Below are positions 17,608 through 44,992 of a stretch of 64,000 bases of DNA, piece after piece (position 1 is the stretch's first letter; each line of letters opens with the position of its first letter). Source of the stretch: Longimicrobiales bacterium. GTDB lineage: Bacteria > Gemmatimonadota > Gemmatimonadetes > Longimicrobiales > Gaopeijiaceae. The position numbers were made by a program, and so were the translations under genes. The notes under the pieces were generated by a model. It was not told the origin of the DNA. It ran no database searches and saw nothing but the letters and a program-made list of their open reading frames with translations. The stretch spans positions 3,040,001-3,104,000 of the forward strand of contig OZ242008.1 in the NCBI GenBank assembly GCA_965204735.1, written 5' to 3'.

Positions 17608-17681
17608 CGGGACGTGGCGCAGTCCGGTAGCGCACCTGAATGGGGTTCAGGGGGTCGCCGGTTCGAATCCGGCCGTCCCGA
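17608..17681 (+). tRNA. tRNA-Pro (GGG)
   Basis: CGGGACG/CGTCCCG acceptor stem, TGGCGCAGTCCGGTAGCGC D arm, CCTGA-ATGGGGT-TCAGG anticodon arm, GGTTCGAATCC T loop; CCA not encoded. Confidence 0.96.
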
Positions 17682-17716
17682 CTATGGCGTCCCCGACGCC
17701 TCCGGTCCTTCCGTTC

Positions 17717-29005: not shown

Positions 29006-30736
29006 CTACTGCCACGGCGCCAGCTCGAGCCTCGCGTCCAGCCGCGCCTTGCGGCCTTGGCCGTCTTCCTCCTTCACCGGTCGCCCTCGCCTGTCGTAGA
29101 CCCGCACCCGAAGCTCCGCCGACTCCCGGTCCACGGTCAGGTGCGAGAAGTTGTCCTCCTGGGAGAAGTTCCAGGCCCGGTAGTCCATCGACACGGCGCG
29201 GCCCTGGGAGTCCTCGAAGCCGAAGGTGTCTTCCTGGCCCTCGGCCCGTGAGTCGTGCACGAAGTCCGAGGGCTCGCCGTCGGCGAAGGGGAACGGCCAG
29301 TAGAACGCCGACGAGGTCACGGAGAACGCCTTGATCCGCTCCGCCTCGGGCGTGCCCGTCAGGAAGAGCTCGGCCACGTTGCAGCAGTGGATGTCGCCCG
29401 AGAGGAAGACGACGTTCTGGATGCCGGCGTCCACCACCCGACGCAGGATCGCAGCCCGGGTGGCGGGAAACGCGGGCCAGCCGTCGCTCTCCTCCAGCGC
29501 CTCCGGCCAACTCTCGGCCATGGCCGTGCGGGCCGACATGGGGTTGGGCGCGAAGACGCCGGAGGTCACGACGAACTTGGGCACGTTCCCCCTTTCGCCC
29601 TGCTGCTCGTCCAGCCAGTCGAGGAGCCGCTTGAGCTGGCCGGGAGGCGCGCCGGGCAAGGTCGGGCGGCCCAGCAGGTTGTTCCGAGCCAGGTCGCCCT
29701 TGGGACCCTCGACGAAGCGCTGGGTGCGGGTGTCGAGAACGAAGAACGGGAAGCCGCCGCAGTCGAAGCGGTAGTAGAGCCGGCGTCCCCACGTCCGCGG
29801 CCCGTGGCTCCACTGATAGCTGAGGTAGGCGTCCACGGCGATGGTGAAGAGCTGGTACTTGGCCGAGCGGCGGAGCCTGTCCTGGGACCAGTTGTCCTCG
29901 ATCTCGTGGTCGTCGAGGATCATGTAGGTGGGGAGCCGCTGCATGAGGCGGCGGACGTTGGGCGACGCGAAGGCGGTCAGGTAGCGGTCCCGAAACTCCC
30001 GGTAGGTGTCGGCCCGGCCGAAGGGAATGACCTTGTTGAAGAGGTCGGCGTAGATCTGGTCGCCCACCATGAGGACGAAGCGCGGCCGGTCCTCGGGGGC
30101 GTCGGCGGGAGCGAGGGCGTCGGCGTCGGAGGCAACGGCGTCGGAGGCGGCGCGGTCGACGCGGCAGGGCAGCCCTTCGGCCAGGCGGGCCATGGGGGCG
30201 AAGATGCGGTCCGAGTGGCGCACCTTCCACAGCAGGCCCGGGTAGCGGCACGAGCCCAGAAGGAAGCTGACGCGGCCGCACTCTCGGCCCTCGGCGGGGA
30301 ACGTCCGCACGACGGCGCCGGCCTTGGCCGGGTCGAGTCGGGCCAGGTCTTCGCGCCACGCGCTGGAGTGCGGGAGCCTTCGCAGGAGCTCGTCGCTCTC
30401 GAACTCGTCGTCGTCGTCCAAGGCGTCGTCGAGGACCAGGCAGCCGACTCGGACCTCGTACTCGGCGTCGGGCTCCAGGGCGAGGTCCGTGTCCGCGCCC
30501 AAGTTGATGCTGCCGCTGCGGTCGAACTCCCGGCGGAGGCGGAAGTAGGCGGTGAAGACTGGGTCGAGGGGCTCGCCGTCCTTGGACAGCACGCCGACGA
30601 CGCCCATGGTGCGACGGGCGGCGCCGGGATGGTCTCCGCCGTCGGTCTCCGGGTCCGCCCGCACCCAGACGCGGCTGGTGGTGTCGGTCGTGTGCCCGAC
30701 GATGGGGCCGAGCCCGGGCAGGCGAAGTGCGGCCAT
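29006..30736 (-). CDS. Alkaline phosphatase D (PhoD) family protein
   Basis: GPIVGHT, GSCRY, VGDQIYAD, MILDDHEIEDNW, LDTRTQR, FLSGDIH; no evident signal peptide. Confidence 0.9.
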   Translation of the reverse strand: MAALRLPGLGPIVGHTTDTTSRVWVRADPETDGGDHPGAARRTMGVVGVLSKDGEPLDPVFTAYFRLRREFDRSGSINLGADTDLALEPDAEYEVRVGCLVLDDALDDDDEFESDELLRRLPHSSAWREDLARLDPAKAGAVVRTFPAEGRECGRVSFLLGSCRYPGLLWKVRHSDRIFAPMARLAEGLPCRVDRAASDAVASDADALAPADAPEDRPRFVLMVGDQIYADLFNKVIPFGRADTYREFRDRYLTAFASPNVRRLMQRLPTYMILDDHEIEDNWSQDRLRRSAKYQLFTIAVDAYLSYQWSHGPRTWGRRLYYRFDCGGFPFFVLDTRTQRFVEGPKGDLARNNLLGRPTLPGAPPGQLKRLLDWLDEQQGERGNVPKFVVTSGVFAPNPMSARTAMAESWPEALEESDGWPAFPATRAAILRRVVDAGIQNVVFLSGDIHCCNVAELFLTGTPEAERIKAFSVTSSAFYWPFPFADGEPSDFVHDSRAEGQEDTFGFEDSQGRAVSMDYRAWNFSQEDNFSHLTVDRESAELRVRVYDRRGRPVKEEDGQGRKARLDARLELAPWQ

Positions 30737-30862
30737 GGGTTCTCCGTTCGGTGCTGGCCAAGTGCGCAGTCTGCGGTTCTGGAACGATAAGCGATCCAGT
30801 GCGGGCCGGCCGATTCTCGACCACTGCAAGCCGACCGATTTCTTGAAGCGGCGATCCACCTG

Positions 30863-30910
30863 TACTGCTGGGGCACGGCTCCCGAGTACCGCCGGGGCAC
30901 GGCTCCCGAG
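30863..30910. repeat. 24-nt tandem duplication in divergent intergenic region
   Basis: TACTGCTGGGGCACGGCTCCCGAG followed by TACCGCCGGGGCACGGCTCCCGAG. Confidence 0.8.
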
Positions 30911-31114
30911 ACGGACCGTGTCCCTTGTCGAGACTGACCGCGCCCCTCGTCCGGGTCCGTCGAGGCGGCGAAGTCCATTGCGCCCCCGCCGATACGAACC
31001 GATTGTGTTTCGTTTCGCCACTCCGAAGCCGCCATGGGCCGACTCCCCGGCGCCGCCCAATCGCCTTGACGCTGGCGGACCCGCCTCTCCCCGTGCCTGC
31101 CGACCTCCACATCG

Positions 31115-31294
31115 ATGAGTCGCTACGTCCTCGCCGCCCTCCTCTGCGCCCTGTCGGCGAACGCTCCCCTGGCCGCCGGCTCCGCCCAGACCGGCACCGA
31201 CGTCGCCCGCGCATGTCGAGAGAGCCACGAAGCCGAGATCGTCGCCATCGACCTCTGCGCGGAGATGCTGACGATGGCGCCGCCGATCTCGTGA
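31115..31294 (+). pseudogene. 59-aa signal-peptide ORF, probable internally deleted remnant of a secreted enzyme (M20 peptidase-like)
   Basis: MSRYVLAALLCALSANAPLAAGSAQTGTDVARACRESHEAEIVAIDLCAEMLTMAPPIS*; stop overlaps next GTG. Confidence 0.45.
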
Positions 31295-33294
31295 GTTCGT
31301 CGGAAGCCGGCAGTTCGTCGGAAGCCGGAGGCGGCTCCCGCAGCCCCTGCTGGCGCTTCCGGGTCATGTCGCCGTCCGAAATCAACGAAAACCCCGTCCA
31401 GGGAGAGTTCTTCAGCGCCAACTTGCCCAAGCGCTTCGTCAGGGAGTCGATCCAGAACTCCTTGGACGCCGGGACCGGCGGGTCCGCTCCGGTGCGGGTC
31501 CGCTTTGCGATCAGCGGCGCCGACGGCTCGCTGGCGCCAACGCGGGCGGCGCGCTACCTGATCGGCCTTCGGCCGCACTTCGGCGCAGTGGTGGACGCCG
31601 CCGGCGCCCCGCGCAAGAACAAGCGGGAGCTGGAAGACCGAAAGGCCCTCTTCGACTGCCCCATGCCCTTCCTCGTCGTGGAGGACTTCGGCACGACGGG
31701 CCTTCGAGGCGACGTGCGCGCCAACGAACCGCAGGCCAAGGGCAACGACTTCTGGGGCTTGTTCCGAAGCGTCGGCATCTCGCCGAAGGAGCAGCACGCG
31801 GGCGGCTCGTGGGGTCTGGGCAAGTGGGTGTTTCCGGACGCCTCCAAGCTCAACGCGTTCATCGGCATCACTCGCCGGCAGGACGAGGACCAGCTGCTCC
31901 TCATGGGCCAGGCGATGCTGAAGCTGCACAAGCTGAACGGCAGGAAGTACTCGCACTACGGCTACTTCGCCGCGGCCTCGGACCAGCCCGACGAGGCGTG
32001 GCTTCCCATGCCGGTCGATTACACGGGCAGCCATGCCGCGTTCGTGCAGCAAGCGCTGGCCGACTTCGGCTTGAAGGACCGGGACCAAGCGGGAACGTCG
32101 GTGGTGGTGCCGCACCCGGAAGACGAGCTGACGGACCCGGACCGCCTCGCCTGGGCCGTGATCTCCCAGTACTTCTGGCCTGTGGTGGCGGGCGACTTGG
32201 TGGTCGAGATCGTGGCGGCGGGCGCGCGGACTCGGACGATCGACGCCGAGACGATCGGCCGGGAAGTCCACCGCTGCGGCGCCGCTTCCGCCGACTCGGG
32301 CGAAGAAGCCGCCGGACCGATGGCCAGGGCGATCGAGCTCGCCGCATGGGGCGCGGCCGCCCCGAAGGCCGGCGACGTGGAAGCTGTGGCCGCCCGCAAG
32401 AAGCCGGCGGTGCCGCCCGGCGAGGTGCACGACGTTCGCAAGCGCTACGAACGGGGAGAGCGCTTGGCCTTCAGCGTCAGGACCAAGGTCCGCGGGCTGC
32501 TGTCGCACTTCCGCGTCTTCCTGGAGAAGGACGACTCCCTCTCAAAGGGACACGACTACTACGTGCGCGGCCATCTGCACGTGCCGGGAATGGACTTCCT
32601 GCACAACTTCCAGGCCCGGGCCCTGACTCTGGTCGACAACCGATCCCTGCTGGGCCACCTATTGCGGGACTCGGAGGGCCCTGCCCACGACAAGTGGAAC
32701 GCATACGCCCGCCGTCTCAAGGACAAGGGGTGGCCGGCCGCGGCCGAGCGGGTCCGGGAAGCCCAGCGCGCGGCGGAGCGCATCCTCCTGCAGCTTGCCG
32801 CCAAGCCCGAGGAGAAGCAGCGCGACGCGCTGGCGGACTTGTTTCCGTCGAAGATCACGGGGCGCGGGGGAAGGACCAGCGGCGGCAAGGCCCTCGGCGA
32901 CGGGGACCGGTTGGATGGCGCCCAGGCGAAGCCCGTTCCCCGCGTCCGACGCGTTCAAGGCGGCATCGCGTTGACGACGGAAGCGACCGACGGCTTGGCG
33001 GGCACGACGTGGACGGTCCGGGTCGCGTACGACGTGGCCCGGGGCACTGCCCGCACTGCGTTCTCGCGCTTTGCGAGCGGCGTCAAGTCCGGTGCTCCCG
33101 ACTTCTCGTTGCGCGAAGACCGCTTGTCCGTGGAGCGCGCGGGCTGCACGGTCGAGGTGGTGACCGACAACGAGCTGCGCGTGGTCGTCACGAAGCCGGC
33201 GATCTCGTTGGCAGTGAAGGGCTTCGACGATCGGGACCTGCTGGTGGAGGTCTCGCAGGTCGAAGAGCCGACCGAGGAAGGCGGCGAGGCGTGA
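31291..33294 (+). CDS. GHKL (MutL/Hsp90/MORC-like) ATPase-domain protein
   Basis: N-box RESIQNSLDA, G1 VEDFGTTGL, G2 GGSWGLGK, G3 GTSVVV; start could instead be ATG 31366. Confidence 0.8.
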   Translation: MSSSEAGSSSEAGGGSRSPCWRFRVMSPSEINENPVQGEFFSANLPKRFVRESIQNSLDAGTGGSAPVRVRFAISGADGSLAPTRAARYLIGLRPHFGAVVDAAGAPRKNKRELEDRKALFDCPMPFLVVEDFGTTGLRGDVRANEPQAKGNDFWGLFRSVGISPKEQHAGGSWGLGKWVFPDASKLNAFIGITRRQDEDQLLLMGQAMLKLHKLNGRKYSHYGYFAAASDQPDEAWLPMPVDYTGSHAAFVQQALADFGLKDRDQAGTSVVVPHPEDELTDPDRLAWAVISQYFWPVVAGDLVVEIVAAGARTRTIDAETIGREVHRCGAASADSGEEAAGPMARAIELAAWGAAAPKAGDVEAVAARKKPAVPPGEVHDVRKRYERGERLAFSVRTKVRGLLSHFRVFLEKDDSLSKGHDYYVRGHLHVPGMDFLHNFQARALTLVDNRSLLGHLLRDSEGPAHDKWNAYARRLKDKGWPAAAERVREAQRAAERILLQLAAKPEEKQRDALADLFPSKITGRGGRTSGGKALGDGDRLDGAQAKPVPRVRRVQGGIALTTEATDGLAGTTWTVRVAYDVARGTARTAFSRFASGVKSGAPDFSLREDRLSVERAGCTVEVVTDNELRVVVTKPAISLAVKGFDDRDLLVEVSQVEEPTEEGGEA

Positions 33295-34067
33295 TCCGAC
33301 ACTTCAACAGCACGGGCCGCCGGCCGATCCAGCGTTCCCACGCCGTCGTGGCGCTTCGGCGGCTGAAGCCCGACGGTTCGCCGGAAGAGTCCGACTACTG
33401 CTTCGACTTGAAGCTGGACCTCTCGAGCTACCGCTTTCCTTCCGACGCGCGCGTCCGAGTGGAAGCTTGGCGCGGCAACGCCTTCCAGCGCTGGGAGTGG
33501 GGCACCGTCGGGCGTCCTGTTGCCCCTTCCGAAGCGGACCGGGTTCTTCGCGACGTGCCCGAGACGTGCCGATTCCGGGTCGCCGTCGTGCGGGCGGGCG
33601 ACTCCGGGCTGCTGCTGGGCTTGGCGGACAAGGTGTCGCCCCGGCGGCCCGTGGAGTCGATTCTGCCGCTGGTGCTCAAGGACATGGGAAGCGAAATCTG
33701 GAGATTGGAGTTCGGCGAAGGCGACGACCTGGTCGAGCTGTGGATCAACAATAGCGTCGCGGGGATGAGCGACGTGGTGCGCAACGACTCGACCTTTCGC
33801 GCGCTTGTGATGCCCCAGGTCCTGCGCTCGGTCCTGGAGCGCGGTCTGCTGGTGAGGAGGGAGCGACCGGACGACATGGAAGGTCCGTGGAGACCCTGGT
33901 TCGACTTGGCGGAGGACGTTCTGCCGGACCAGTCGCCGCCCGTGCTGGAGCACGACGCCCAAGACGACGAGATCGCCCGTGCCGACAGGTGGATTGACCA
34001 GGTCGTGGCGGCGTTCGCAAAGAAGCGCGTCAAGGCCGTGGAGCTGTACGGAAGGCGGAAGCGATGA
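33291..34067 (+). CDS. Hypothetical protein, second gene of GHKL operon
   Basis: GTGA overlap with GAGG RBS; MIRHFNSTGRRPI..., beta-rich N-half, helical C-half (FRALVMPQVLRSVL). Confidence 0.8.
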   Translation: MIRHFNSTGRRPIQRSHAVVALRRLKPDGSPEESDYCFDLKLDLSSYRFPSDARVRVEAWRGNAFQRWEWGTVGRPVAPSEADRVLRDVPETCRFRVAVVRAGDSGLLLGLADKVSPRRPVESILPLVLKDMGSEIWRLEFGEGDDLVELWINNSVAGMSDVVRNDSTFRALVMPQVLRSVLERGLLVRRERPDDMEGPWRPWFDLAEDVLPDQSPPVLEHDAQDDEIARADRWIDQVVAAFAKKRVKAVELYGRRKR

Positions 34068-34840
34068 CGGCGGCGCAGCCTGCCGAGGCGAATGCTCCGA
34101 AGCTGGGCGCCGTGGTGGCCCGGGAGCTGACCGCAAGCGGCATCGCCCGAGCATTGCGCTTTCTTGCGGACGTGCGCGCCGACCCGGCGGGGCCGCCAGC
34201 GCCGCCTCGCGATCTTCTCTTCCACAACCGCTACAGCCGCCCCTTCGCCAACGCCCCGACCCTGGAGCCCCGCGCGTTCGCAACCCGGCGGGAGGTGGGC
34301 GAGTACCTGTCGCCCAGGCTGGCCCCGATCAAGCGACAGATCATGGACCGCGCGTCGTTCTGGTCGTGGCTGGGCATCTTTTACTTCGAGGGCACGGTGC
34401 GGGTGGTGGACGGCGCGGCTCGGCTGTCGGCCGGCGACGAAACGGTTGTGATTGATCCTGGGGACTCCTTGGCAACGAGGAGTATCCACAGCCACTACTT
34501 GAGGTCGGCTTGGCGCGTGTTCGAGGCGTACGGCGAAGACGCGGCCTTCCTGCTGAACCAAGCGCCTGGCTCTCGAAGCAACATCGCCGACCGCATCCTC
34601 AGGTCCCAGCGAGTCTTCAACTCAACAGGACTGGTCTCGCTCATTCTCCGCCTGTACACGCATCAGGGACGCCAGAAACAGGGCTTCATGCGCCGAGCCG
34701 GTGGACTTGTTCACCTGATTCGCGTCCTCGACCAGCTCGAGCGCACCCACGACGTCTACCACATGTCCCCCGACGCGCTGATCCGCATCCTGCCGCCCGA
34801 GTTCGACCCATGGATCGAGGCCGAACAGACGGTCAAATAG
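34064..34840 (+). CDS. Hypothetical protein, third gene of GHKL operon
   Basis: ATGA overlap; FWSWLGIFYF, HYLRSAW, LDQLERTHDV, LPPEFDPW. Confidence 0.8.
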   Translation: MTAAQPAEANAPKLGAVVARELTASGIARALRFLADVRADPAGPPAPPRDLLFHNRYSRPFANAPTLEPRAFATRREVGEYLSPRLAPIKRQIMDRASFWSWLGIFYFEGTVRVVDGAARLSAGDETVVIDPGDSLATRSIHSHYLRSAWRVFEAYGEDAAFLLNQAPGSRSNIADRILRSQRVFNSTGLVSLILRLYTHQGRQKQGFMRRAGGLVHLIRVLDQLERTHDVYHMSPDALIRILPPEFDPWIEAEQTVK

Positions 34841-34843
34841 CTG

Positions 34844-34888
34844 GTCACAGTAGCACTGTTGACATGCGGAACGCGTAATGTTATCAAT
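34844..34888 (+). promoter_or_regulatory. Putative sigma70 promoter of fic with an overlapping palindromic operator
   Basis: TTGACA 34859-34864, 17 nt, TATCAA 34882-34887 preceded by TG; inverted repeat ACAGT-agc-ACTGT 34847-34859. Confidence 0.5.
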
Positions 34889-34930
34889 CATTATCCGTCG
34901 TCGAAGAAGCTGCCAAATAAGGAGTCACAG

Positions 34931-36112
34931 ATGGACTGGCGCCGCTTTCGGTTCGAGTACCGCATCGGACTTTCCCCACGGAAGCTCGCCGCGCTGCTGG
35001 TGCGGATCGACGGGTACCGGGAAGCCGCTCGCAACCTCGTCCTTCCCCCCGATTGGAAGACCAAGCTCGATCGGCTCAACCGGATTCGGGCGATCCGCGG
35101 CACTACTGGACTGGAGGGCAACCCTCTCTCCGAGGAGCAGGTGGCCGAGGTTCTGGACGACGAGACCGGGGCGGCAGCGCGCACGAGGGACGGCCGGCAG
35201 GCTCGCAACGCCGAAGCCGCCCAGAAGTGGGTCAGGAGGCGGTTCGGCAGCGACGGGCCACCGCTGACCACGGGCGACATCCTCCGCATGCATCAGCTCG
35301 TGACGGTCGGCTCCGACGAGGCGGACAACGTGCCGGGTCGGCTTCGGAGCCACAACGTCAAGGTCGGAACCGACGCGCTGGGGGGCGTCCACCGGGGCGC
35401 CCCTCATCCGTGGGTCGAGCGGCTGACGGCCGAGTTCGTCGCCTTCGTCAACTCCCGCAGGGTGCGCAACGAGCATCCTGTCGTGCGCGCCCTCCTCGCC
35501 CACTTCTTTCTTGCGACGATCCACCCGTTCGGCGACGGGAACGGCCGGGTCTCCCGCTTGGTGGAGGCCGCCGTGCTCTACGAGGGCGGCTACAACGTCC
35601 ACGGCTTCTATGGTCTCTCCAACTTCTTCTACGTCCACGGGGACAAGTACAAGCTGCTTCTGCAGAAGTGCCGCCGATTCGTGCCTTTCGAAGTAGCGCC
35701 GTTCGTGGAGTTCGGGTTGGAAGGCTTCGCCAGCGAACTTGGCGGCATCAACAACTTCATCCGGACGAAGCTGAACCGCCTGGTCTATCGCGACATGATG
35801 TCGAGGGCGCTCGGCGTCAGGGTCAGCAAGCGCCGTCGGCTTCTCAACGAGCGAGAGTACAACCTGCTTCGCTTCCTGCTTGAAGAAACCGAGCCGAACG
35901 ATCCCTTCGCCGCCGAGCCGTCCCGCCGAGTCTCGCTTGCGGAGCTCGTCGATTCGCCCTTCGTGCGGCAGGTCTACCGTGACGTGACCCGCCGCACGTT
36001 CCGGCGAGAGCTGATGCGCCTTGCCGAGCACGGCTTCATCCGCTTCGAGCGCGACGCGGAGAGCGGCGACCACGCCGTGAAGGTGGAGTTCAGCGCGATC
36101 GGTCGCTACTGA
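34931..36112 (+). CDS. Fic family protein (class II-like) with C-terminal winged HTH
   Basis: AAGGAG RBS; HPFGDGNGRVSR; N-terminal inhibitory-type motif TTGLEGN; C-terminal VTRRTFRRELMRLAEHGFI. Confidence 0.93.
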   Translation: MDWRRFRFEYRIGLSPRKLAALLVRIDGYREAARNLVLPPDWKTKLDRLNRIRAIRGTTGLEGNPLSEEQVAEVLDDETGAAARTRDGRQARNAEAAQKWVRRRFGSDGPPLTTGDILRMHQLVTVGSDEADNVPGRLRSHNVKVGTDALGGVHRGAPHPWVERLTAEFVAFVNSRRVRNEHPVVRALLAHFFLATIHPFGDGNGRVSRLVEAAVLYEGGYNVHGFYGLSNFFYVHGDKYKLLLQKCRRFVPFEVAPFVEFGLEGFASELGGINNFIRTKLNRLVYRDMMSRALGVRVSKRRRLLNEREYNLLRFLLEETEPNDPFAAEPSRRVSLAELVDSPFVRQVYRDVTRRTFRRELMRLAEHGFIRFERDAESGDHAVKVEFSAIGRY

Positions 36113-36234
36113 CCGGAGAGGCGCGCGATCCAAGGAACCATGTTGCAGAGCAACAAGCCGTTGTTCGTGTCCGTCGGCGGGCTGGTGGTTTCGCCACTGA
36201 TACTGGCGTGCGCCGACGGCCACGCATCTTGGTG

Positions 36235-37008
36235 CTACTCGCCGCTCCGGCCGCAACATTTCTTGTACTTTCGGCCGCTGCCGCAGGGACATCGCTTGTT
36301 GCGCGGCGTTCTAGTTCGCAGGACGATAGGAGCGACTTCGACACGGTATCGGGCCTCGGTCCGCTCACCGCTGCTACGAGCCGCTTCCCGACACTCCAAG
36401 CCCAGCGCTGCATAGTCGGCTGCGGCGCGGCGAAAGTGCTTGCGGGCGTCGGCGGCGCCCTCTTCCAACGACACGCCGATTTCCGACGAAAGCTTCTTGG
36501 CCACGCCAGGCGCAGCGAAGAAGCCAAGGATCCACAACAACAGGCCCATGCCGTCAAGCTTGTCGTCATGCTCGTCCCAGTCTTTCTCCAACCAATAGTA
36601 CCCTTGCGCAAAACCTTGACTCCATTGGGCGACAGGAGCGTCCGAGTCGAGGTTGTCGATCGTATCCTCGCGGAAGACAATGTCCTTGGGCAACCGACCA
36701 TTGCCTCGCATCACGTCTTCCACGATGTCGTTGTACAGTGACATAAGCGCTCTGGTGATCCGCTCGGCTTCCCGCTTCGTCGCGAAGACGGGCAACTCGC
36801 CTCCGAATACCTGGGGCAACCATTCGGCCGGCAACACAAGCTCCGGCGCCGCCACGACCGAGAAGAGGAATCCCTCGATCTTTGCGAACGAGTAAACGCC
36901 AAGTTCCTGAACGTCCGGGCGCGAGAGGTACTCCGTCAGCACGCGACGCTGTCCTGCCGTCATGGACTTGGCGAGGTTCTCTTGCCAGCGTGGTCTTCTC
37001 ATCCTCAA
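36235..37008 (-). CDS. UPF0149/YecA family protein with SEC-C motif (copy A)
   Basis: IEGFLFSV..PELVLPAEWLP, WSQGFAQG, RNKRCPCGSGRKYKKCC; start may be ATG 37002. Confidence 0.88.
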   Translation of the reverse strand: MRMRRPRWQENLAKSMTAGQRRVLTEYLSRPDVQELGVYSFAKIEGFLFSVVAAPELVLPAEWLPQVFGGELPVFATKREAERITRALMSLYNDIVEDVMRGNGRLPKDIVFREDTIDNLDSDAPVAQWSQGFAQGYYWLEKDWDEHDDKLDGMGLLLWILGFFAAPGVAKKLSSEIGVSLEEGAADARKHFRRAAADYAALGLECREAARSSGERTEARYRVEVAPIVLRTRTPRNKRCPCGSGRKYKKCCGRSGE

Positions 37009-37030
37009 GTCCGCCAGTACATCCAGCGCC

Positions 37031-38203
37031 TCAGCCTCGTTCCGCCGTAAACAACTCGGGGTCGATTCCCGGGACGATCTTCAGCGCGTTTTCGTAGTAT
37101 ATCTTTCGCAGGACCTGGTCGGGCAGGCCCAAGCCGTACATCTGCCAGAAGGCGTGGTAGCGGCGGTAGTAGTCGAAGTAGTCGTCCGTGGTCTCGAAGA
37201 CGCGGAAGTAGGTGTGGAACTCTTCCTTGTTGTACGAGTCCTTCCCCATGAGCGCTCGGTCCTGGTATCGGATCAGCCACTCGCGGGCAAAGCGGGGCTG
37301 CCGTCCGAGCTCGTACAGCACGGCGCCCAGGCCGACGTACATGTTGGGGATTTCGTCGAGCAACCGTCCAAGGCGGCCCAGGTCGTGGCCCAGCCAGCTC
37401 AGGTGGGCCGATATGAAGTTGGTGCCTGGATGGGCGCGGAAGAGGCTGTGCTGCTCTCCGATGATCTGCTCGAAGGGCGGGTAGTCGTCAGGCCGACGGA
37501 TGCGCCGAGGGCGCAGCTTGAGTTCCAGCCAGCGCTCGTTGAAGCGGTCGTGGGGCTGCCAGAACTCGGCCGGGTCCGCCGAGTGGATGAGGACGGGCAG
37601 ACCCAGCTCGCCGGCCTTGTCCCAGAGAGGCGCCAGCCGGGGGTCGTCCACGGGGATGCGCTTGCCGTCCACGTCCCGGTGGTCCATTCCCAGGCCCTTG
37701 AAGATCTTCAGTCCGACGGCGCCGTTGCGGGCATCCTCCGCCAGCTGGGCGGCGGCTCGTTCGCCCCACCCGGGCTCTCCCACGCCCCGGAAGCTCGTGT
37801 TGGCGAAGAAGACGAAGCGCCCGGGGTGACGGCCCGCCATCGCTTCCAATCCCTGCACCAGCGCCGCGCCGCTTCGTCCGGAGAGGTTCACCATCACGGC
37901 CATGTTGAGTTCGTCCATCTCGCCCACCAGCCGGTCCACGTCCTCGCTGGACATCGACGCGGCTCGCTGATGGCCGTGGACGTCGACGAACGGGAAGCGC
38001 GCCCGGGTCACCGGTTCGCCCGGCACGACCAGCGTGTTGCGCGGCTGGTACTCCTCGACCGTGACCTCCTGGGCGAGAAGGGCGCCCGGGGCCCACGCGA
38101 ACGTTCCGGCGGTCGAGCCGCCGACCAAGCCGAGAAGCAGCAGGCCGAGCTGCCCGACCGCCTTGTGCATGGTGCTGATGCGCATGAAGCGTCGCTCCGT
38201 CAT
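37031..38203 (-). CDS. Amidohydrolase_2 family protein (secreted)
   Basis: VDVHGH, GAVGLKI, PVLIHSADP, FISAH, ALMGKD, IYYENA; ATGA overlap with upstream stop. Confidence 0.9.
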   Translation of the reverse strand: MTERRFMRISTMHKAVGQLGLLLLGLVGGSTAGTFAWAPGALLAQEVTVEEYQPRNTLVVPGEPVTRARFPFVDVHGHQRAASMSSEDVDRLVGEMDELNMAVMVNLSGRSGAALVQGLEAMAGRHPGRFVFFANTSFRGVGEPGWGERAAAQLAEDARNGAVGLKIFKGLGMDHRDVDGKRIPVDDPRLAPLWDKAGELGLPVLIHSADPAEFWQPHDRFNERWLELKLRPRRIRRPDDYPPFEQIIGEQHSLFRAHPGTNFISAHLSWLGHDLGRLGRLLDEIPNMYVGLGAVLYELGRQPRFAREWLIRYQDRALMGKDSYNKEEFHTYFRVFETTDDYFDYYRRYHAFWQMYGLGLPDQVLRKIYYENALKIVPGIDPELFTAERG

Positions 38204-39297
38204 TTCCTGTGGATCGTCATCAGAAGGTAGCGCTTCAGGCGCGAGAAGCGCTTCGGGCTCAGGGCGTCCATGCTGCGCAGGAGCCGGCACCGGGTCCGGT
38301 TCGCGACCGGTTCCAGAACGTAGTGGGCGGCCGGCCGCTTCGCCCGCAGCTTCTCCGTCGCAAAGTCGAAGACGGGAAGGCCGATCCGCTCCGCCAGCAG
38401 GCGCGCGAAGGCGAGCGTCGGCAGGACGTGCGGCGTCATGTCCTCCTCGCGGGCGATGCAATAGCCGGCTCGGTCGGCCCGCTCCCGAAAGGCGGCCAGC
38501 GACCAGCCGGAGCGGTCGCTCCCGGCAAGATCGGCCTTGGCCGGCTCGCTCCGGAGAGCGTTGTTCCCGGCCCGTCCCCCGCCGGGCCGGCCGCTCCCGC
38601 CGTCCAAGCTCTCGTCGCCCGAGACTGCACCGGCGCCCGTCGGCGCCCGAAAGTAGTCGGCCACGATCCACCGTCCCCCTGGGGCCAGCGCCCGGTCCAC
38701 CACGCCGAACACCCGCTCCGGGTCCATGTACTGGATCGACTCCGCGTGAAGAATGGTCCCGAAGCGGCCCTCGTGCTCTTCCACCGCCAGGTCTTCGAAC
38801 CGGCAGCGCATCACGGGAACGTCGGGGTAGGCCCGGCGGATGTGCTCGACCTGGTGGCGGTCCGGCGTCAGCCCGATCGCCTCGTGCCCCGCCGCCTTGA
38901 GCACGGCCAGCATTCCGCCCATTCCCGAGCCGGCGTCCAGGACCGGCGACCCGGGCTTCGGCGGACCAATCGCCTCCACGACCTTGCGCGCATAGCGAAG
39001 CTGCGCCCGGTAGAGGGCGTCGAAGCTGATCGCCTCCGGCGGCGTTGTCGGATCGTCGAAGTAGCCGTAGTGAAGGAAGTCGCCGGGCAACATCCGGCTG
39101 TAGAGCAGCAGCTGCGCGTTCCCCTCGACCGTCGGCGTTCGCGCATGGTTGCGGCGCAACTTGATCCGGCGCAGGGCGTGGGCGGGCAACAGAGCGCGTC
39201 CCAACAGCTGCCTGGCGACCCACGACGCCGAGAGCTTTGCCGAGTCGGCGGACGCGCTCCCGTCGCCCGACGAGTGTTCGCCTCCGCCGCCCGTCAC
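38200..39297 (-). CDS. Class I SAM-dependent methyltransferase (sterol/cyclopropane-MT-like)
   Basis: LHYGYF..AQ, VLDAGSGMGG, ESIQY, LAPGGRWIVADYF, EDMTPHVLPT. Confidence 0.88.
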   Translation of the reverse strand: MTGGGGEHSSGDGSASADSAKLSASWVARQLLGRALLPAHALRRIKLRRNHARTPTVEGNAQLLLYSRMLPGDFLHYGYFDDPTTPPEAISFDALYRAQLRYARKVVEAIGPPKPGSPVLDAGSGMGGMLAVLKAAGHEAIGLTPDRHQVEHIRRAYPDVPVMRCRFEDLAVEEHEGRFGTILHAESIQYMDPERVFGVVDRALAPGGRWIVADYFRAPTGAGAVSGDESLDGGSGRPGGGRAGNNALRSEPAKADLAGSDRSGWSLAAFRERADRAGYCIAREEDMTPHVLPTLAFARLLAERIGLPVFDFATEKLRAKRPAAHYVLEPVANRTRCRLLRSMDALSPKRFSRLKRYLLMTIHRK

Positions 39298-40067
39298 GCC
39301 TCGGCGATCCAGCCGCAGCACTTCTTGTACTTGCGGCCGCTGTCGCATGGACAAGGTTCGTTGCGGCCGATTGCGGCCGTCCGGGGGGCAGGCTTGAAGG
39401 GGTTTGCCGGGTACTGGCTGGCCGCCAGCTGGATCGGATCCCGCGCGGCGTCTCGGCACTGTGCGCCCAGAGCGGCGTAGCGGGCGGCGGCGAACCGAAA
39501 GACCGTGCAGGCCTTTTCGGCGGATTCCTCGATCGGCGCGCCGAACTCCCTCTGGAACTCCTTGGCCAAGTCCGGCGTGGAGAAGAAGCAAAGGGTCCAC
39601 ACCACGAAGGCCAGCTCGTCGGAGCCGATCCCGTGCTCTTGCCAATCCTCCTCCAGCCAATAGTGTCCCTGGATGAATCCCCGGCTCCACTGGGCCACGG
39701 GGGCGTCGTCGTCCAAGTTGTCGACGGGATCGTCCGTGAAGACGATGTCGTCGGGCAACATGCCGTCGCGTTGCGTCACGTCGCCGGCGATCTTGTTGTA
39801 GAGCGACATGACGGCCCCGGTGACCATTCTTGCCTCCACCGCCGTCGCGAAGGCCGGCACGGCGCCTCCGAAGACCATGGGCAGCCACTCGGAGGGCGGC
39901 ACGAGGTTGGGCGACGCGGCAACGGAGAAGAGGAAGCCTTCCAGTTCGTTGAACGTGTACGCCTGAAGGCCCTGAACGTCGGGGCGCGAAAGGTACTCGA
40001 TCAGCTCGGTGCGGCGGGCAGAGGTGAACGGTCGTGCGACGGCGCGCACCAGCTTCATCTCGCCCAT
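39294..40067 (-). CDS. UPF0149/YecA family protein with SEC-C motif (copy B)
   Basis: LEGFLFSV..PNLVPPSEWLP, WSRGFIQG, GRNEPCPCDSGRKYKKCC. Confidence 0.9.
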   Translation of the reverse strand: MGEMKLVRAVARPFTSARRTELIEYLSRPDVQGLQAYTFNELEGFLFSVAASPNLVPPSEWLPMVFGGAVPAFATAVEARMVTGAVMSLYNKIAGDVTQRDGMLPDDIVFTDDPVDNLDDDAPVAQWSRGFIQGHYWLEEDWQEHGIGSDELAFVVWTLCFFSTPDLAKEFQREFGAPIEESAEKACTVFRFAAARYAALGAQCRDAARDPIQLAASQYPANPFKPAPRTAAIGRNEPCPCDSGRKYKKCCGWIAEA

Positions 40068-40070
40068 CGG

Positions 40071-41141
40071 CTACCCGCGATTGAAGACGAAGTAGTCGTG
40101 CAGCGCGCGGGCGATCTGCGCCACGACGCGCTCCCGCTCCTCCACGGTGCGCTCCGACTCCTTGACGTACACTACGGCGACGACGTGGCCGGCGCCGTCG
40201 GGCAGGTCGACGATGCCCACGTCGTTGGTGGTCTGGCCGATCGTGCCCGTCTTGTGGGCGACTTGCGTGCCCGGCGGCAGCGCCCCCTTCAGCCTCGCTT
40301 CGCCCGTCCTGCACCGGTACATGATGTCCAGCAGCAGCGCCGAGCTTTCCTCCGACAGCAGCTCTCGATTCCAGATCATCCGCAGCAGGTCCGACATCGC
40401 CGCAGGCGTGGAAGTGTCGCGGGGGTCCGCGTTGAAGACGGCGTTGAGGGCCGCCGTGGCGGCGTCGTCGCGCTCCGCTTCGAGCAGCGTGCGGTACTCG
40501 GCGGGAGCGATGGGATCGGCTTCGCTCACGTCCGCCCGACCCAGCCAGTTGGCGATCAGCGCCCAAGTGGGCCGGTCCACGCGAATGCCGTCCAGCCCGG
40601 CGGCGCGCATCCTGGCCGTGACGGCGGCGGACCCGCCGGCCTCCCGCATGAGGATGTCGGTGGCGATGTTGTCGCTGATCTGCAGCATGAGCTCCAGGAG
40701 GTTGTGGACGGAGACGTGGAGGCCCGGGTCGTCCAGCAGGTCGCTGATGGCGCTGGAGGTCAGGAACACGTCGCTTTGCCGCACCTCCACCAGCTGGGAC
40801 AGGGAAAGCTCGCCGCGATCCGCCATCGACAAGATCTGCACGGCGATCGGAACCTTGTACGTGCTGGCCATGGGGAAGGGCTCGTCGCCGTTCAGCACGA
40901 CCCCGCGTCCCGTCTCCAAGTGGTACGCGGCCACGCCCACGACGCCCTCCGCCGCCTCGGCGAGCCGCTCCACCTCGGCGGCCAAGTGGACCAGGTTCGG
41001 GTCCTCTCCGAAGGTGCGGGCGTTCTGGGCGGCGGCGCCCGACGGGCCGGCGGCCGCGAGACCCGCGACTGCCCAGGCAAGGGCGACGAGGCTCGGCGCC
41101 GGGCCGGGCCGGACTATGGACGTGGGACTGGCGTTCGACAT
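40071..41141 (-). CDS. Class A beta-lactamase-like serine hydrolase
   Basis: Signal peptide; FPMASTYK (SxxK), SDN, RDTSTP, VAHKTGT, NDVGI. Confidence 0.9.
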   Translation of the reverse strand: MSNASPTSIVRPGPAPSLVALAWAVAGLAAAGPSGAAAQNARTFGEDPNLVHLAAEVERLAEAAEGVVGVAAYHLETGRGVVLNGDEPFPMASTYKVPIAVQILSMADRGELSLSQLVEVRQSDVFLTSSAISDLLDDPGLHVSVHNLLELMLQISDNIATDILMREAGGSAAVTARMRAAGLDGIRVDRPTWALIANWLGRADVSEADPIAPAEYRTLLEAERDDAATAALNAVFNADPRDTSTPAAMSDLLRMIWNRELLSEESSALLLDIMYRCRTGEARLKGALPPGTQVAHKTGTIGQTTNDVGIVDLPDGAGHVVAVVYVKESERTVEERERVVAQIARALHDYFVFNRG

Positions 41142-41407
41142 GGAAACGTTCCTCGACAAGGGATGCCTCGCATCGGCCCGAGAGAGGGCGGAGTCGGAGA
41201 CTCGCCCTGGGCTTTGAATTGGATCAGAACTAGTCTGGCTAGCGACTAGTGTCTGCCAGAAAATAGAGGGTCTGGCGCGATCTGGCGAGTCGCAGGCGCG
41301 CGGACAGTGTCGTACCAATTTAGAAATGTCCGGTCTTACCAAGATAGAAATGTCCTCTTTCGGGCGATGTTCGGCGGGAGTCGAACTCGTGCCCGGGAGA
41401 GGAGCGA

Positions 41408-42742
41408 ATGGAGTTGAGCTTGAAGGAGCGGGACCGGATCTCGGTGTTGAGGCAGGTGAGCGAAGGCGTGCTGGCGGCGGCCGACGGCGCGGCGCGCTTC
41501 GGGGTGACGGAGCGTCACTTCCGGCGCGTGCGCCGCCGGTTCGAGGCGGCGGGCGACGAGGTGGTCGTGCACGGGCTCCGGGGTCGGAGGTCGAACCGGT
41601 CGCTGCCGTCGGAGACGCGGGAGCAGGTGCTGGTCATGGCCAGGGACCCCGACTACGCCGACTTCGGCGCCACGTTTCTGGCGGAGCACGTCGAGCGGGA
41701 GCTGGGCGTGCGCGTCAGCGCGGAGACGCTGCGGGCATGGCGGAAGGGCGCGGGCTTGTGGCAGCGCAAGCGCAAGCGGGCGAAGCACCGGCGCCGACGG
41801 CCGCGTCGCGCCGCGCGGGGCGAGCTGCTCCAGTGGGACAGCTCGGTTCACGCCTGGCTTGAAGACCGGGGGCCGCCCGACCTCGTGCTGATCGCGCTGC
41901 ACGACGACGCGACGAGCGGGTTCATGCACGGTCGCTTCGTCGAGCGCGACACGGGCGCCGCGAATCGGCGAGCGATCGTCGAGTGCCTCGAACGCCACGG
42001 ACGGCCGAGGGCGGTATACGTGGACCACGCGGGCCACTTCGGGCAGCGCCTCGGCCCGGAGGGCAAGCGGACCCGGACGATCATCGGCACGGCGCTGGAG
42101 AAGCTGGGCGTCGAGGTGATCCTGGCGAACTCGCCGCAGGCGAAGGGCCGGGTCGAGCGGACGTTCGGCACGGCGCAGGACCGGCTGGTCAAAGAGATGC
42201 GCTTGGCGCGAGTCACCACGCTCGATGCGGCGAACCGCTACTTGGAGGAGCGGTGGGTTCCGTTCTGGAACGAACGCTTCACGGTGGCGCCGGCCGATCC
42301 CCTCGACGCCCATCGCCCGCTGCCTCAGGACATCGATCTGGAAGCCCTCTTCGCCGAGACGGACACGCGGGTCGTGGCCCGCGACTTCACCGTGCGCTTC
42401 GAGAACCGCTTCTGGCAGGTCACGGCCCGCGACGCCGAGGCGGCCGGCGTCGCGCCGGGCTCCCCCGTCGTCGTCGAACGGCGCCTCTCGGGCGAGCTGC
42501 GCTTCCGGCATCGCGGCTGCTACCTGACGCCCAAGGCCTTGGGGGCGGTCCGGTCGGCGACGCCCAAGCCGGCGCCCGCGCCCGCGACGGCCAAGCCCAG
42601 GCCCAAGCCGCCGAAGCCGGGAAGGGATCACCCGTGGCGCAAGCACTTCAGCGCCAGCGTGGCCCAGGCCGTGGCCAAGCGGGAACACCGCGCCGCCCAC
42701 TCCAACGGGACCGGTCCCGAGCGGTGCAGGACCTCGTCCTGA
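41408..42742 (+). CDS. DDE transposase (ISNCY/IS1202-like, rve fold)
   Basis: N-terminal HTH, HGLRGR.SN, DFGAT, LQWDSSVH (D), VYVDHAGHF (D), SPQAKGRVER (E), QDRL, PxxDHPWR tail. Confidence 0.95.
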   Translation: MELSLKERDRISVLRQVSEGVLAAADGAARFGVTERHFRRVRRRFEAAGDEVVVHGLRGRRSNRSLPSETREQVLVMARDPDYADFGATFLAEHVERELGVRVSAETLRAWRKGAGLWQRKRKRAKHRRRRPRRAARGELLQWDSSVHAWLEDRGPPDLVLIALHDDATSGFMHGRFVERDTGAANRRAIVECLERHGRPRAVYVDHAGHFGQRLGPEGKRTRTIIGTALEKLGVEVILANSPQAKGRVERTFGTAQDRLVKEMRLARVTTLDAANRYLEERWVPFWNERFTVAPADPLDAHRPLPQDIDLEALFAETDTRVVARDFTVRFENRFWQVTARDAEAAGVAPGSPVVVERRLSGELRFRHRGCYLTPKALGAVRSATPKPAPAPATAKPRPKPPKPGRDHPWRKHFSASVAQAVAKREHRAAHSNGTGPERCRTSS

Positions 42743-44904: not shown

Positions 44905-44919
44905 CGGCGCCGGCGAGAG

Positions 44920-44992
<73 letters not shown>

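Follow-up and report, generated by a model that had tools for sequence, protein, structure and literature searches.

A cassette of three adjoining genes, here called A, B and C (positions 31291–34840, plus strand), lies in a 64,000-nucleotide stretch of a Longimicrobiales bacterium (GCA_965204735.1, contig OZ242008.1, 3,040,001–3,104,000, forward strand; hereafter the window). Our preferred reading, held with modest confidence, is that of a conserved, mobile, restriction-like defence module in which A would act as an ATP-gated DNA clamp, B as an adaptor and C as a DNA-reading or effector subunit, together picking out foreign DNA without a methylase of their own. This reading builds on the linkage of the three genes, the GHKL+S5 fold and motifs of A, purifying selection, and a link to Dcm and Vsr that is present in relatives and absent here. 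In line with the original prediction, made from the letters alone, the genes are joined by GTGA and ATGA overlaps: A (31291–33294; 667 aa by translation) encodes a paraMORC2-type GHKL ATPase, B (33291–34067; 258 aa) a remote homologue of PDC-M33B, and C (34064–34840; 258 aa) a mostly helical, remote homologue of DUF6339 and PDC-M33C. The paraMORC2 family and the PDC-M33 layout were already known; new is a branch that is sister to PDC-M33 and has no linked methylase. A contig from a second study spans 30121–37193 with 80 differences and no gaps, so the locus is not an assembly artefact.

Relatives were collected by a genome scan, of which the best 79 of 164 confirmed relatives were kept as loci, and by a metagenome scan with a distant alignment, of which 80 of 285 were kept. 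A-B-C was complete in 73/79 genome loci and 53/80 metagenome loci, many of the incomplete metagenome loci ending at contig edges, which establishes the three genes as a conserved unit; B followed A in 75 of the 79 genome loci, and C was found in 73. These 79 loci come from seven phyla (Chloroflexota 57, Gemmatimonadota 13, Pseudomonadota 3, Acidobacteriota 3, and one each of three others) that are interleaved on the tree of A proteins, and we take some of the taxa concerned to be sponge symbionts. Full-length matches occurred in 3/201 genomes of the window's own phylum and in 2/401 and 4/120 genomes of two other phyla (centre genomes included), and the cassette occupied different sites in all three same-genus genomes. 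This patchiness, together with the differing sites and the seven interleaved phyla, argues for a mobile cassette. The subfamily numbers 1,242 representatives at 50% identity (E up to 1e-30; sister families may be included in this count), and carriage by phages is rare (three IMG/VR loci, two of them with A, B and C, and one weak GenBank phage match). A ~430-aa gene, AlbA/Schlafen-like by eye, lies near the cassette in six Gemmatimonadota loci (L003:8712-10007, L004, L005, L007, L008 and L041) and is absent at the window site.

Gene A matched no Pfam or NCBIfam family, and sequence searches of the PDB gave nothing significant for A, B or C. An AlphaFold2 model of A (predicted local distance difference test, pLDDT, 82.6) indicated a GHKL+S5 module at residues ~27–509, a flexible linker and a C-terminal β-sandwich at 545–659. 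Model residues 27–513 aligned to the whole GHKL+S5 modules of SMCHD1, MutL, MORC3 and ParE, the fold matches being SMCHD1 (Z 14.6, root-mean-square deviation 5.7, 313 aligned), GRP94 (14.4), MutL (13.1), TopoVI-B (12.8) and MORC3 (12.8), and residues 545–659 returned generic β-sandwich matches (Z ~6). The long C-terminal part of A noted earlier is thus there but not unknown, corresponding by fold match to the S5 transducer plus a β-sandwich. The GHKL boxes were found as predicted (RESIQNSLDA 51–60, EDFGTTG 131–137, GGSWGLGK 171–178, GTSV 268–271), and E52, N56, D59, G175, G177, E462 and H466 are invariant across 115 aligned homologues; W21 and F23 are nearly so, which favours the GTG start of A over an ATG at 31366. 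At the very start of A (31294–31329), a near-perfect 18-base tandem duplication encodes SSSEAG twice.

E462–H466 forms an ExxxH motif, which a regular expression recovered in 17/18 sister or distant proteins, and the motif of MORC proper (GhXhhpXXRhl) had no match in A. According to the text of Iyer 2008 (PMC2292703), paraMORC2 proteins are defined by ExxxH in the C-terminal part of S5, are located in restriction-modification operons and are mainly cyanobacterial and Gram-positive. Judged on GHKL+S5 and ExxxH, A is best classed as paraMORC2, and through this family the suggested tie of A to restriction-modification operons gains support. As a GHL ATPase, A is predicted to be an ATP-gated clamp whose substrate would be DNA, by analogy with GHL proteins described as dimerising on ATP binding and closing round their substrate (bioRxiv 10.64898/2026.09.30.754977).

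The fold of A also raises the thought of a nuclease-free silencer that, like eukaryotic MORC and SMCHD1, would repress foreign or mobile DNA by binding and compacting it. The SMCHD1 ATPase is the top match (within ~1–2 Z of GRP94, MutL, TopoVI-B and MORC3), no nuclease was found in A, B or C, and the cassette persists without a self-marking methylase. Such a silencer is nevertheless unlikely in our view: a common GHKL fold reveals no function, no DNA-binding domain of a known type was found, and the occurrence of Dcm and Vsr without a restriction enzyme in relatives suits restriction better.

For B, no match was found in Pfam, NCBIfam, PADLOC or PDB sequences. Profile–profile comparison with hhalign aligned B to 14 sister B proteins (P 59%, E 9e-5, 102 columns) and C to 13 sister C proteins (P 66%, E 5.5e-5, 160 columns), with swapped and reversed controls at P <0.4%; with shallower alignments, P fell to 45% and 7%. 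The ESM Atlas led from B to three unnamed clusters and from C to no usable match. The AlphaFold2 model of C (pLDDT 94.6, predicted template modelling score 0.88) had no fold match in the PDB (Foldseek; best VIA-align Z 3.9) or among viral models, which does not imply a new fold. Conserved residues of C are W100, W102, H144, Y198, G213, Q224 and D230. C is duplicated in 16/73 genome loci (paralogues 36–82% identical) versus 0/53 metagenome loci, and R143, fixed in 51/51 metagenome sequences, occurs in 65/89 clade sequences and is Ser in the window. Duplication and variation at R143 would fit C as a diversifying specificity subunit; C is probably the DNA-reading or effector subunit and B probably an adaptor. 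A natural A–B fusion was considered and dropped, as the only two longer B forms are A–B read-throughs with an out-of-frame-looking join. Many C homologues (P0274, P0279, P0280, P0285, P0288, P0291, P0349) carry small conserved extra end domains behind low-complexity linkers; 58/59 long C forms held no Pfam family, and one (P0349) held DUF4268.

In its layout the cassette resembles PDC-M33, one of 145 untested PADLOC candidates (Payne et al., bioRxiv 10.1101/2024.01.29.577857). The name PDC-M33 is absent from the main text of that preprint and from the literature searched. Both show the same A-B-C order on one strand, with adjacent genes of similar sizes, and each gene is homologous to its counterpart. 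True PDC-M33 loci, however, match the PADLOC models with E 1e-91 to 1e-129 for A (305–431 bits), 1e-38 to 1e-53 for B and 1e-29 to 1e-44 for C, whereas window A reached only E 1.6e-19 (68 bits) against PDC-M33A, over residues 32–309 in its N-terminal half. None of the close homologues matched the B and C models (0/60 for PDC-M33B, 0/64 for PDC-M33C), 2/64 close C homologues matched DUF6339 at E 0.014 or worse, and the same two PADLOC models also failed to match any of the 19 distant B and C homologues that were tested. Since B and C miss these models despite the remote homology of all three genes, the cassette is, by sequence comparison, a sister subfamily of PDC-M33 and not a member. The earlier label of an uncharacterised system therefore does not wholly apply, A being a paraMORC2 protein and the layout that of a listed candidate. 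More distant ExxxH ATPases likewise precede two genes of similar size; the third gene of these distant cassettes was DUF6339 in 8/12 tested (so named in four plasmid records), and four of the distant loci are true PDC-M33. No paper on DUF6339 was found in the literature searched, nor a functional test of a paraMORC2 cassette, papers on paraMORC being judged by title or abstract. The searched text of Iyer 2008 (PMC2292703) does not describe B and C; they may be among its X1–X3 domains, and its additional file, or Tables S3–S8 of Payne et al., may already list them.

Other GHL systems offer partial parallels. VcSduA, a paraMORC3-like GHKL–Shedu fusion reported to need its ATPase for anti-phage activity (PMC12137116), and Tiamat (bioRxiv 10.64898/2026.09.30.754977) are described as GHL ATPases with demonstrated anti-phage activity and have been modelled as clamps formed by dimers; each is a single protein carrying a nuclease fused at its C-terminus, whereas window A ends in a β-sandwich and has two separate partners. 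A PADLOC scan matched neither Mza nor BREX models to A, B or C. The Mza system comprises MzaB (GHKL), MzaC (Z1), MzaD (DUF4420) and MzaE (AIPR), and its GHKL+Z1+DUF4420 neighbourhood is also seen in sister cassettes, with neither Z1 nor DUF4420 at the window locus. BREX serves as an analogy only, with its fixed ATPase core and exchangeable marking enzyme.

Window A shares with paraMORC2 the GHKL+S5 module, all ATP-binding boxes, ExxxH and a sporadic, laterally mobile distribution. The genomic context differs. The paraMORC2 neighbourhood of methylase, Vsr, helicase and nuclease, a family tendency rather than a sequence definition, is absent from the window, where the earlier statement that no methylase, helicase or recognisable nuclease is present proved correct; nor was an SFII helicase, methylase or nuclease seen beside its clade, and window-type loci are mainly from Chloroflexota and Gemmatimonadota. 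The paraMORC2 context (Dcm, Vsr, sometimes Z1 plus PD-(D/E)XK) does recur in distant relatives of the window. Among complete loci with at least 2.5 kb of flank on both sides, Dcm lies beside the cassette in 16/24 and Vsr in 13/24 metagenome loci, versus 0/67 and 0/67 genome loci of the window clade, a contrast to which sampling contributes, the two sets coming from different searches. Vsr was present in 21/29 Dcm-linked complete loci, an EcoRII-type enzyme in only 3/80 metagenome loci, and no other nuclease family recurred in clustering. At loci that pair the cassette with Dcm and Vsr but show no restriction enzyme, A-B-C would itself serve as the restriction arm.

A FastTree phylogeny of 138 A proteins, rooted on eight sister sequences and flagged for long branches in the outgroup, places the window in a clade of 75 rows (support 98), none of them Dcm-linked. 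Some metagenome sequences are Dcm-free as well, and the Dcm trait needs at least five changes on the tree. The commonest partner Dcm type, the only one tested, had no full-length match in 13/15 clade genomes and was otherwise seen as one unlinked and one split copy; two of the 15 genomes had no Dcm match at all. Adenine methylases were examined as a substitute for Dcm and set aside, lying within 1 kb in 3/67 and within 3 kb in 10/67 loci and so forming no regular partner. The partners of sister cassettes are Dcm+Vsr, Z1+DUF4420, EcoRII, or a set of PAPS-reductase-like and cysteine-desulfurase-like genes (the last two labels resting on a weak SspD match and on reading of the sequences), and this variety of partner sets suggests that the marking partner is exchangeable.

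The recurrence of Vsr could also mean that the cassette assists DNA modification or very-short-patch repair, with a dedicated MutL-like ATPase loading Vsr or a methylase and now working with unlinked enzymes. MutL is described as working with Vsr in E. coli (Iyer 2008, PMC2292703), Vsr accompanies most Dcm-linked complete loci, and the window genome encodes a Vsr at an unlinked site along with four Dcm-like genes. Still, neither Vsr nor Dcm adjoins any of the 67 well-flanked clade loci, the usual Dcm type is missing from most of the clade genomes tested, and duplication of C would be unexpected, so that we regard a repair role as distinctly unlikely.

Several further arrangements were seen among the relatives. 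Locus L149, of the window's own subfamily, has Z1 and DUF4420 before the cassette and Dcm after it, as do L100, L101 and L102 in the superfamily; Z1 and a PD-(D/E)XK gene lie nearby in L149. A ~220-aa gene without a PADLOC match recurs in six Dcm-linked metagenome loci (L165:2770-3435, L115, L133, L144, L151 and L186). The window genome itself carries a second paraMORC2-type cassette (L091:7612-11512; contig ~91.6–95.5 kb), with a DUF6339 third gene (E 2.5e-11), a Dcm immediately following the cassette, and genes resembling HEC-01 and HEC-03 close by. A third type in the same genome (L194:7553-11798; ~4.095–4.100 Mb) places paraMORC2-B-C beside a PAPS-reductase-like gene, as also in L094 and L110–L113, the last four adding cysteine-desulfurase-like and GmrSD-like genes; possibly, this third type builds a phosphorothioate-like sulfur-modification system around a GHKL ATPase.

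The Dcm-free clade is under purifying selection. The ratio of nonsynonymous to synonymous substitution rates (dN/dS) was 0.13–0.27 in 13/13 comparisons of the window with relatives, a rough estimate given large synonymous distances (0.45–1.4), and Dcm-free rows kept the N-box in 75/77 and ExxxH in 70/77 cases. An incomplete system, as contemplated in the original prediction, is improbable, because an entire clade persists without a methylase. The same data bear on the notion that the cassette is an orphan remnant of a five-gene Dcm system, passively carried and decaying. The partner methylase is indeed missing and several copies among relatives are broken, but the low dN/dS, motifs intact across the 75-row clade (members down to ~31% identity to window A) and the spread of the methylase-free form over seven phyla make decay barely credible, and the selection data already largely refute it.

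A defence-gene neighbourhood was only partly recovered. With a PADLOC match at E 1e-25 within 3 kb as the measure, 9/25 cassette loci were positive versus 1/20 control regions (one-sided p 0.014), the 25 loci being hand-picked from the 79 and the controls drawn from seven genomes; by gene, the figures were 11/109 versus 2/79 (one-sided p 0.038). A simple script selected the neighbouring genes, which were truncated at 450 residues; the counts for both sets are therefore too low. Among the neighbours were Gabija, a Type I specificity gene with HEC-05, a Type II enzyme, PDC-S30 and five methylases. This modest enrichment agrees with the proposed defence setting, but the window's own site is no defence island, its neighbours being PhoD, peptidase, YecA and insertion sequence (IS) genes. 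That absence weighs against a defence module, as do the choice of loci and controls just described and the fact that five of the nine positive loci owe their status to an adenine/N4-cytosine methylase match only. So do several observations from elsewhere: the cassette stays at one chromosomal site across 7 and ~14 genomes in two Chloroflexota groups, which for defence genes would be unusually slow turnover; copies are broken at L007, L036, L041, L046 and L071; no nuclease motif or fold was recognised in A, B or C; and no phenotype of PDC-M33 was found in the literature searched or in the searched text of Payne et al.

As a restriction-like module, the cassette might operate as follows. By the GHL analogy, A would dimerise at its N-terminus upon ATP binding and close round its substrate, presumably DNA. 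A, B and C would assemble as one complex in which B links A to C, and C would read or set the target, a role suggested by its being the only duplicated subunit and by its variation at residues fixed in Dcm-linked relatives. In those relatives, self DNA would carry 5-methylcytosine as its mark, with A-B-C standing in for the absent restriction enzyme. In the window branch, self would be spared by a rule other than a linked Dcm, and the trigger might be a modified base in phage DNA, an end or structure in the DNA, or the lack of an unlinked host mark. The outcome could be cutting by a new-fold C or a replication block without cutting, which we consider about equally probable.

In a bolder variant, the cassette would be a self-sufficient bacterial MORC-like immune machine that has lost its methylase, whose clamp loads a new-fold C, diversified by duplication and reading foreign or modified DNA directly, and which either cuts through an undescribed active site or silences as MORC and SMCHD1 do; we regard it as possible though doubtful. 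Alternatively, A could be an Hsp90-type sensor of a phage protein that releases a toxic B or C in abortive infection. Hsp90-family proteins are among the fold matches of A, putative Hsp90-like anti-phage proteins receive mention (bioRxiv 10.64898/2026.09.30.754977), and such a mechanism needs no methylase. The family's strong association with Dcm and Vsr points instead to DNA, and neither B nor C showed a fold or motif resembling a toxin, so protein sensing strikes us as very improbable.

ParaMORC ATPases were predicted to act in restriction-modification in 2008, and the three-gene, methylase-free form is the simplest construct for asking what they do; the subfamily is large, yet escapes PADLOC's B and C models. 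The cassette bears on how self is spared, on the DUF6339-like fold as a DNA reader or a new nuclease, and on a bacterial origin of MORC-type silencing.

Downstream, a Fic-domain gene follows the operon as had been noted (34931–36112, plus strand; Pfam Fic E 7e-14). Its product keeps an intact HPFGDGNGRVSR motif and matches PADLOC SoFic (E 3.5e-38) but scores far under the cut-off of the NCBIfam SoFic model (27.6 against 550 bits). Although the original prediction grouped it with the module, Fic goes with the flanking block: a tblastn match near the cassette was found in 5/79 loci, only one of them close (68%, ~10 kb away), and 3/3 same-genus genomes, which may also be among the 79 loci and so are not independent, carry cassette and Fic separately, 0.24–1.5 Mb apart. 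In two of the three, Fic stays with the block that follows it in the window. We therefore exclude it as a fourth cassette gene. Fic has its own AGGAG at 34920–34924, after a 90-base gap from C. A promoter scan listed no plus-strand site; a TTGACA-17-TATCAA stretch upstream of Fic (34859–34887) was spotted by eye only.

The idea of an acquired DNA-targeting module holds in so far as the cassette is a mobile, conserved unit, but composition gives no sign of recent acquisition: the guanine–cytosine (GC) content of A (0.693) equals the genome mean (0.693), with B at 0.669 and C at 0.663. The AT-rich segment reported at ~34.4–37 kb is real (GC 0.633 over 34401–37000), yet little of it belongs to the cassette: it covers the end of C, the gap between C and Fic, Fic itself and a YecA gene.

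The gene remnants proposed on both sides were not confirmed, in that a 59-codon open reading frame (ORF; 31115–31294, plus strand) and a short ORF from 36140 had no match elsewhere in their own genome, to which the search was limited. The former has a hydrophobic, signal-peptide-like start and a stop overlapping the GTG of A; it is possibly a truncated gene, and its membership in the cassette is unsupported. Further downstream are two paralogous YecA-like genes (UPF0149 + SEC-C) at 36235–37008 and 39294–40067, with GC of 0.61 in the first and 0.66 in the second, and a minus-strand ORF (40071–41342) that by eye resembles a class A β-lactamase-family serine hydrolase. An IS-type transposase-like gene with helix-turn-helix domains follows at 41408–42742, with short stretches of its flank matched at three further sites of the genome. 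Genes for tRNA-Pro (17608–17682) and tRNA-Lys (44919–44992) lie 14 kb and 10 kb from the cassette, respectively.

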